This document shows, piece after piece, positions 29,084 to 29,306 of a stretch of DNA of 64,000 bases (position 1 is its first letter; every line of letters begins with the position of its first letter). The stretch is from a bacterium (lineage in GTDB: Bacteria; JAJVIF01; JAGGVT01). Under the pieces are notes generated by a model that searched no databases, was not told where the DNA came from, and saw only the letters and a list, made by a program, of their open reading frames with translations. Position numbers and translations under genes: made by a program. The stretch spans positions 9,335 through 73,334 of the forward strand of contig JAGGVT010000096.1 in NCBI GenBank assembly GCA_021157815.1, read 5' to 3'.

Positions 29084-29306
29084 AGGGTTATAGAGGGTGT
29101 CGGGAAAGGTTGCTTTTGTATCTTATCCCCCCCTTAATCCCCCCGCGAGCGGGGGGAGATTTTTTTGCATTTGTAAACAATATATCTGGTATATGCACTT
29201 GCGAAGGGGAGAGGCAATATTCTCCCTCCCCGTTCGCGGGGAGGGCTGGGGTGGGGGCTTCTTGTTTGCGATGCCTTTTCCGACACGCTCTATAACCCTC
29301 TGACGC
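29084..29306. mobile_element. MITE-like element, copy A (26-bp TIR AGGGTTATAGAGGGTGTCGGGAAAGG)
   Basis: Terminal inverted repeats with 2 mismatches. Internal G/C hairpins ccccccgcgagcgggggg and ccctccccgttcgcggggaggg. An inverted, diverged second copy lies at 61248-61492. Confidence 0.6.

Follow-up and report, generated by a model that had tools for sequence, protein, structure and literature searches.

Two non-coding elements that resemble each other from end to end are found in intergenic DNA of the stretch analysed here, which is 64,000 nucleotides long, comes from an uncultured bacterium and is referred to below as the window. Copy A lies on the plus strand in the spacer between an XRE-type HTH gene and a glycosyltransferase gene, and copy B on the minus strand between a STAS gene and an acyl-CoA dehydrogenase gene. 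A first-pass annotation had described a MITE-like element of about 225 bp with 26-bp terminal inverted repeats, present twice in opposite orientation. The claim about the two loci holds: A and B align end to end as reverse complements at about 87% overall identity, B having one additional 29-nt module (29-nt insertion at 61312-61340). Counted with the flanking palindrome, locus A is 29081-29306, and its reverse complement is found at 61243-61497. The first arm of the alignment is 29093-29236 against 61341-61484 (85%) and the second is 29238-29305 against 61243-61310 (87%). Two look-alike stretches of roughly the proposed size are present, but the transposed unit measures 198 bp in A and 227 bp in B. 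The features are as follows; loci compared with the window carry L numbers.

29081-29088, unstranded: left host-palindrome arm of copy A, CAAAGGGT, uninterrupted at L005 2324, at L023 704 and in L040
29089-29092, unstranded: left 4-bp target-site duplication, TATA, its length taken from restoration of the empty site
29093-29290, plus: copy A, type 1, 198 bp, 5'-GAGGGTGTCGG to CCGACACGCTC-3', its boundaries taken from the filled/empty comparisons in relatives and the flank table
29093-29109, plus: left terminal inverted repeat, GAGGGTGTCGGGAAAGG, kept at both ends of all copies and also found in type 2
29138-29167, plus: internal G/C hairpin and T-run, TCCCCCCGCGAGCGGGGGGA GATTTTTTTG, resembling an intrinsic terminator
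29274-29290, plus: right terminal inverted repeat, CCTTTTCCGACACGCTC
29291-29294, unstranded: right 4-bp target-site duplication, TATA
29295-29302, unstranded: right host-palindrome arm, ACCCTCTG
61246-61253, unstranded: host-palindrome arm of copy B, CGGAGGGT, from a terminator-like hairpin directly after the STAS gene
61254-61257, unstranded: target-site duplication of copy B, TTAC (TTAC/TTAC at the same site in L039)
61258-61484, minus: copy B, type 1, 227 bp, at a site filled in L039 and empty in L040
61312-61340, minus: 29-nt module, TCGAAGACCCTGAGCGTAGCCGAACGGGT, located in the tip of the second internal hairpin and not in A
61485-61488, unstranded: second duplication of copy B, CTAC, with one substitution
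61489-61496, unstranded: host-palindrome arm of copy B, CCACTCTG, from the filled/empty comparison at site B

With at most one mismatch, TGTCGGGAAAGG has 8 matches in the window against 0.25 expected from shuffled sequence, and GGGGAGGGCTGGGGTGGGGG has 2 matches against 0 expected. No third type-1 copy is found within the window.

Several other repeats and features are found in the window. The 8-nt tandem repeat CTGCTAAC, with TTACTAAC variants, forms three intergenic arrays (23755-23952, 53566-53787 and 57854-58010), the first of which directly abuts a second type of element described below. The minus-strand gene of an IS200/RAYT-like Y1 transposase (26472-27053) is followed by an array of eleven tandem repeats of 25 nt, TTGTCATTCCGGGCTTGACCCAACA (26032-26427), and a related complete hairpin is found at 9143-9186. 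Inverted pairs of the AAAAGGGGACAGTCC type occur as a 140-nt doublet at 12195-12334 and at 41706-41755 with 43088-43137, where they bracket a DegT-family aminotransferase gene, and a further copy at 27090-27110 adjoins the start of the RAYT-like gene; these repeats may be the REP/REPIN partners of that gene. Other palindromic intergenic elements are located at 14526-14703 (49-nt arms) and 36662-36818 (68-nt arms). Just downstream of the acyl-CoA dehydrogenase gene there is a cobalamin riboswitch (62804-62935; Rfam RF00174, scoring 34 bits where the gathering score is 31.5). Longer repeats at 3131-5200 and 44624-49104 comprise 267-nt in-frame tandem repeats in a repeat-domain protein and a 2.6-kb tandem pair of heparinase-like paralogues that are 71-76% identical. 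Finally, an extended -10-like box, TGGTATACT (29349-29357), precedes the glycosyltransferase gene and is conserved in relatives down to 73% protein identity; the end of copy A lies upstream of this box, at a distance of about 55 nt.

Further copies and elements with like ends

At least nine more copies are found in three close relatives, bringing the tally to at least 11 full or partial copies in three related genomes. The glutaryl-CoA dehydrogenase gene of these relatives, which is the neighbour of copy B, is 91-95% identical to that of the window at the nucleotide level. A scan of one genome per species for the paired ends gave four full copies in the MAG CBDURE01 (45% G+C, as in the window); BLAST added three partial copies in the CBDURE01 loci, and one more copy is located on another contig of the same assembly. 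L039, L040 and L042/L043 were found through the orthologue of the adjacent acyl-CoA dehydrogenase. At the nucleotide level this gene is 95.1% identical to the window in L039, which contains two copies of the element, and 90.7% identical in L040 (the MAG), while L042/L043, where the dehydrogenase is 71% identical, contain zero copies. The closest named homologues of the dehydrogenase, at about 65% identity, belong to Calditrichia, Bacteroidota and Ignavibacteriales.

The copies are found on both strands and always between called genes. They are 198-285 bp long, and those that were aligned are 83-94% identical. Five contigs from three assemblies, reached by look-ups of the window proteins and belonging to the same population, begin or end within the element, as is typical of dispersed repeats.

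When metagenomes were scanned with the paired-end pattern, no extra type-1 copies were found; the matches were either chance ones within genes or belonged to a small number of short palindromic elements that are unrelated but have similar ends. In the scan of one genome per species, a match in L001 (Paracoccaceae) was rejected as a chance hit of the pattern. Viral contigs scanned with the 17-nt end gave 26 single matches with no inverted partner within 4 kb, and these are treated as chance. BLAST against plasmids and phages returned only matches of 40-60 nt to the G-rich hairpin, in unannotated Azospirillum and Rhizobium DNA, and a literature search on the end sequences returned only primers and unrelated sequences.

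The same ends also enclose other cores, as in the following element of the window:

23567-23764, plus: type-2 element, 198 bp, with 16-nt ends as in type 1 (100% and 94%) and an unrelated core

The type-2 core is built around a long GGGTGCCGCCC...GGGCGGCACCC stem, and relatives of it are found at L002 5251-5395 and L004 5617-5700. Between the window and the L002 copy there is one compensatory change in an inner hairpin (AGCCC/GGGCU and AGCCG/CGGCU). Like ends, GAGCC/GAGGC-TGTCGGRAAAG, also flank unrelated short elements in other metagenomes (L006/7/16 and L020). Shared ends with different cargo are what a common transposase predicts.

Ends, target duplications and filled or empty sites

The first bases of the element are GAG and the last are CTC. 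A terminal inverted repeat of about 17 nt, GAGSSTGTCGGRAAAGG, is present at both ends of 11 of the 11 paired copies; its two S positions vary freely and are often non-complementary between the ends. Inverted termini had been correctly noted, but the length of 26 bp has to be revised, since its outer 8-9 nt come from a host palindrome and are followed by 4 nt of target-site duplication. The unit occupies the tip of this short palindrome, CAGAGGGT...ACCCTCTG, which supplies the outer third of the 26 bp. Because insertion falls at a palindrome apex, each copy appears to have a longer, copy-specific inverted repeat; in copy A this extends over 29 nt (29081-29109 and 29274-29302) with 90% complementarity. 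Seven of nine insertions are centred in such a palindrome, and a second palindrome in the MAG, AACCGAGCCTCGAACG / CGTTCGAGGCTCGGTT, plays the same role and also hosts a 50-nt mini element. The intergenic location given earlier is correct, while the adjacency to XRE and STAS genes is incidental, since a small palindrome is what the element targets.

Two sites are filled in one relative and empty in another. Site B, between the STAS and dehydrogenase genes, is empty in L040, where it reads GGCAGAGGGTTTCCCCCCTCTGC and forms a small hairpin just after the STAS gene. In L039 the site is filled, reading GGCAGAGGGT-TTAC-(GAGCGTGTCGG...CCGACACGCTC)-TTAC-CCCCTCTGC with GAGCG...CGCTC as the termini of the element, and in the window it is likewise filled, the element being flanked there by TTAC and CTAC. 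The second site, between a histidine-kinase gene and rplI, is empty in L040 (CAGAGGGTTTTAACCCTCTG) and filled in L039 as CAGAGGGT-TTTA-(GAGCT...TGCTC)-TATA-ACCCTCTG. At both sites, deletion of the element together with one 4-bp repeat gives the empty sequence at its exact length. Duplications of TA or of a 3-bp TNA were considered and are excluded, the length of the empty sites agreeing with 4 bp only.

Perfect 4-bp duplications are found in three pairs (L003, TAAC/TAAC; L039, TTAC/TTAC; copy A, TATA/TATA), and two of these three, TAAC and TTAC, are non-palindromic. Four of the other pairs in the flank table agree at three of four positions and three disagree. A clean duplication is lacking in the MAG copies L002b and L004 and in the type-2 copy, which appear to have been copied along with an outer palindrome. 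Duplications and inverted repeats are indistinguishable at palindromic flanks, and the 4-bp length therefore rests mainly on the two filled/empty pairs and the two non-palindromic duplications.

Taken with the end-to-end alignment, these alleles bear out the MITE-like reading of the first-pass annotation, which had proposed a search for further copies and for target-site duplications; both exist, the former with conserved ends and the latter 4 bp long.

At site A, the spacer between the HTH and glycosyltransferase genes is without the element in L036 and L038, where the glycosyltransferase is 73% and 71% identical. In L035 (about 430-1090, the orthologue of window 29050-29330; glycosyltransferase 90% identical) a different insert of about 350 nt occupies the position of A; it is rich in G/C hairpins and has the ends AAAGGACCTCACCCCC and GGGGGTGAGGTCTTT. 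The spacer appears to be an insertion hot spot. In L040 an element related to the palindrome at window 14526-14703 is inserted at 6006-6117, beside the empty target.

Since the insertions differ between hosts whose genes diverge by only 5-9% at the nucleotide level, the family has been recently active. At site B the elements of the window and L039 are only 87% identical, with an adjacent gene at 95%, and each of the two is nearer to copies elsewhere. This suggests conversion between copies, or re-insertion.

Such unexpected divergence of same-site copies would also fit a BIME-like local mosaic of palindromes, made by slippage and recombination and not by transposition. The nesting with other palindromic modules agrees with this, as does the 29-nt module that is present 0, 1 or 3 times. 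So does a 62-nt tandem duplication of the left end of the element at L002 2465-2526, directly before a full copy; judging from the CGAACG / GCGAGCG microhomology at its junctions, it looks like a product of replication slippage and not of transposition. An identical-ended 198-bp unit is, however, found at unrelated loci in three genomes with base-clean boundaries and 4-bp duplications, and slippage does not produce such a unit. A mosaic origin is therefore extremely unlikely.

Coding content, folding and cargo of the core

No coding signal was found. The open reading frames inside the elements had been called spurious, and this agrees with a six-frame search of the concatenated copies against 5.8 billion proteins, which returned a single gene call running through another copy. 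The copies are separated by 1-nt and 29-nt indels, and no frame is open across them. An outward promoter in the AT-rich centre, TGGTATATG, was also considered and rejected; the stretch is unconserved among the copies and a consensus scan was negative. The G-rich internal hairpins reported earlier are indeed shared by A and B and are here seen as cargo modules, one of them variable in copy number. The variable one is the 29-nt unit TCGAAGACCCTGAGCGTAGCCGAACGGG, which is found at the tip of the second hairpin in 0, 1 or 3 tandem repeats depending on the copy, the triple tandem being in the second copy of L039 (12740-12826).

Copy A is predicted to form a single long hairpin of -122 kcal/mol (z = -10.8), and copy B one of -113.6 kcal/mol (z = -4.5). 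The sense strand folds better than its complement in nine of nine copies, by 3-25 kcal/mol. In a strand-neutral fold-back alignment of seven copies the sense strand has 67 G.T mismatches against 19 A.C, with G.T in excess in every copy, these counts being non-independent because of shared ancestry. An 8-bp G/C hairpin with a T-run on the sense strand (29138-29167) is invariant in seven of the seven aligned copies. The orientation of the element relative to neighbouring genes is inconsistent, so a terminator role is at most a side effect; as such, an inserted copy may work as a one-way terminator or an RNA hairpin.

Two other explanations draw on this folding. According to the first, the element is a multi-copy structured non-coding RNA gene or a cis-regulatory RNA, in which the long terminal stem merely mimics inverted repeats. 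The very stable, strand-asymmetric fold, the conserved hairpin and U-run of the sense strand, the wobble-compatible substitutions on that strand (many one-sided wobble changes among the seven copies) and the good conservation of the core between hosts are all compatible with an RNA. Against it, none of the approximately 60 pairs predicted within the element proper has changed on both sides in the seven copies, although the power of this comparison is low at 83-94% identity, and the double changes that occur are confined to the outer nine pairs, which are the differing host palindromes. Two positions beside TGTCGG are often unpaired. Rfam gave no match for A or B at the gathering score in a search of the whole window, and at E-values up to 10 only sub-threshold noise for both element types. 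The inconsistent gene orientation, the variable module number, and the presence or absence at orthologous sites together with a duplication also speak against an RNA, and this explanation is very unlikely. A structured RNA was the alternative offered by the first-pass annotation, and apart from the strand bias in folding it has gained no positive support; the covariation analysis suggested there revealed no two-sided changes within the element proper.

According to the second, the whole unit is a REPIN-like, long single-stranded DNA hairpin moved by a HUH tyrosine transposase of the RAYT/IS200 type, such as the product of the gene at 26472-27053. This Y1_Tnp gene is located 2 kb from copy A, the fold-back of the element is near-complete, G.T mismatches are in excess, and uniform same-strand folding would be expected of a one-strand DNA substrate. 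Yet the element is flanked by 4-bp target duplications, and HUH/RAYT-type transposition is not known to make any. The RAYT-like gene is flanked by other repeats, namely the 25-nt TTGTCATTCCGGGCTTGACCC array and AAAAGGGGACAGTCC hairpins, and TGTCGGGAAAG is absent from its flanks. Moreover, what is conserved in the element is a terminal repeat that also bounds an unrelated core; it is no short hairpin of the REP type with its 5' tetranucleotide. The different flanking repeats and the duplications make this particular gene a poor candidate for the mobiliser, and a REPIN-like unit is on the whole highly improbable.

Mobilisation and relation to known systems

The element is most probably a MITE, that is a non-coding, non-autonomous DNA transposon mobilised in trans, with a preference for the apices of palindromes. 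Elements of this kind are well known; the family, from an uncultured bacterium, is new. The transposase, encoded at another place in the genome, would bind the terminal repeats of about 17 bp and make cuts staggered by 4 bp in the target, whose repair would then leave the 4-bp duplication. Insertions favour A/T-rich tetranucleotides at the tips of short palindromes that have G/C stems and resemble REP elements or terminators, and the element is longer than about 198 bp where the 29-nt module is inserted. We infer that the trans-acting enzyme is of the DDE type, and that it recognises the hairpin apex itself and not its sequence. From the GAG..TG..AAA ends and the 4-bp duplication, the transposase may belong to an IS5-like family. 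Searches of the window, of about 250 kb of related loci and of viral contigs revealed neither an autonomous element nor a transposase gene with these ends.

The strong strand bias of folding falls outside the predictions of a plain cut-and-paste MITE. The element may be more than selfish DNA: same-strand folding, the G.U bias of about 3.5:1, the invariant terminator-like hairpin and the insertion almost solely at the apices of existing palindromes could together point to an undescribed transposition that recognises extruded hairpins or single-stranded DNA, or to a MITE with a selected RNA cargo, in effect a portable one-way terminator or hairpin. Either of these has only a small chance of being correct. 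If the cargo is a selected RNA, the module would rewire intergenic regions in this uncultured lineage; a new mechanism would be involved only if the strand bias reflects a single-strand intermediate. For the MITE preferred here, the unusual points are limited to the targeting of hairpin tips and the strand bias.

The MITE adds a family that clearly favours the tips of short palindromes in intergenic DNA. Such elements and their relatives create spurious open reading frames and break metagenome assemblies, which makes them relevant for annotation. Their presence differs between strains that are about 95% identical, and they can serve as strain markers for this uncultured clade. As the element carries a terminator-like hairpin, copies may also alter read-through between neighbouring genes.

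Bacterial MITEs derived from DDE insertion sequences include Correia of Neisseria, RUP of Streptococcus pneumoniae and Nezha of cyanobacteria. The element resembles these in its small size (MITEs are 100-400 bp) and lack of coding capacity, in its terminal inverted repeats and short duplication, and in having many copies between genes in either orientation. It is also, like them, insertion-polymorphic among close strains and forms long hairpins with possible promoter- or terminator-like signals. The GAGSSTGTCGGRAAAGG ends match those of no named MITE in the literature search, and the 4-bp duplication separates the element from Correia and the IS630-derived families, which duplicate TA. The similarity to the IS5 family (IS5/IS427-type) lies in the G-R-S-n-n-T-G...AAA ends and in a 4-bp duplication of A/T-rich tetranucleotides, while the targets TTAC, TAAC, TATA and TTTA do not strictly fit the YTAR rule.

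IS1397 and ISKpn1 are autonomous elements of the IS3 family with TG...CA ends, which insert into the loops of enterobacterial REP palindromes. Insertion at the apex of short intergenic palindromes is common to them and the present element, and their duplication is 3-4 bp; in contrast, the present element is non-autonomous, measures 198 bp, has GAG ends and targets other palindromes. REPINs are likewise intergenic fold-back repeats, and a RAYT-like gene is found in the window, but the repeats of that gene are different, and the target duplication and the terminal repeat shared with a different core set the element apart. Finally, as in BIMEs and RIMEs, intergenic DNA in this clade is a mosaic in which several palindromic modules are nested. 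Unlike these, the element is fixed in its ends and length and has a duplication, and thus behaves as one transposable unit.
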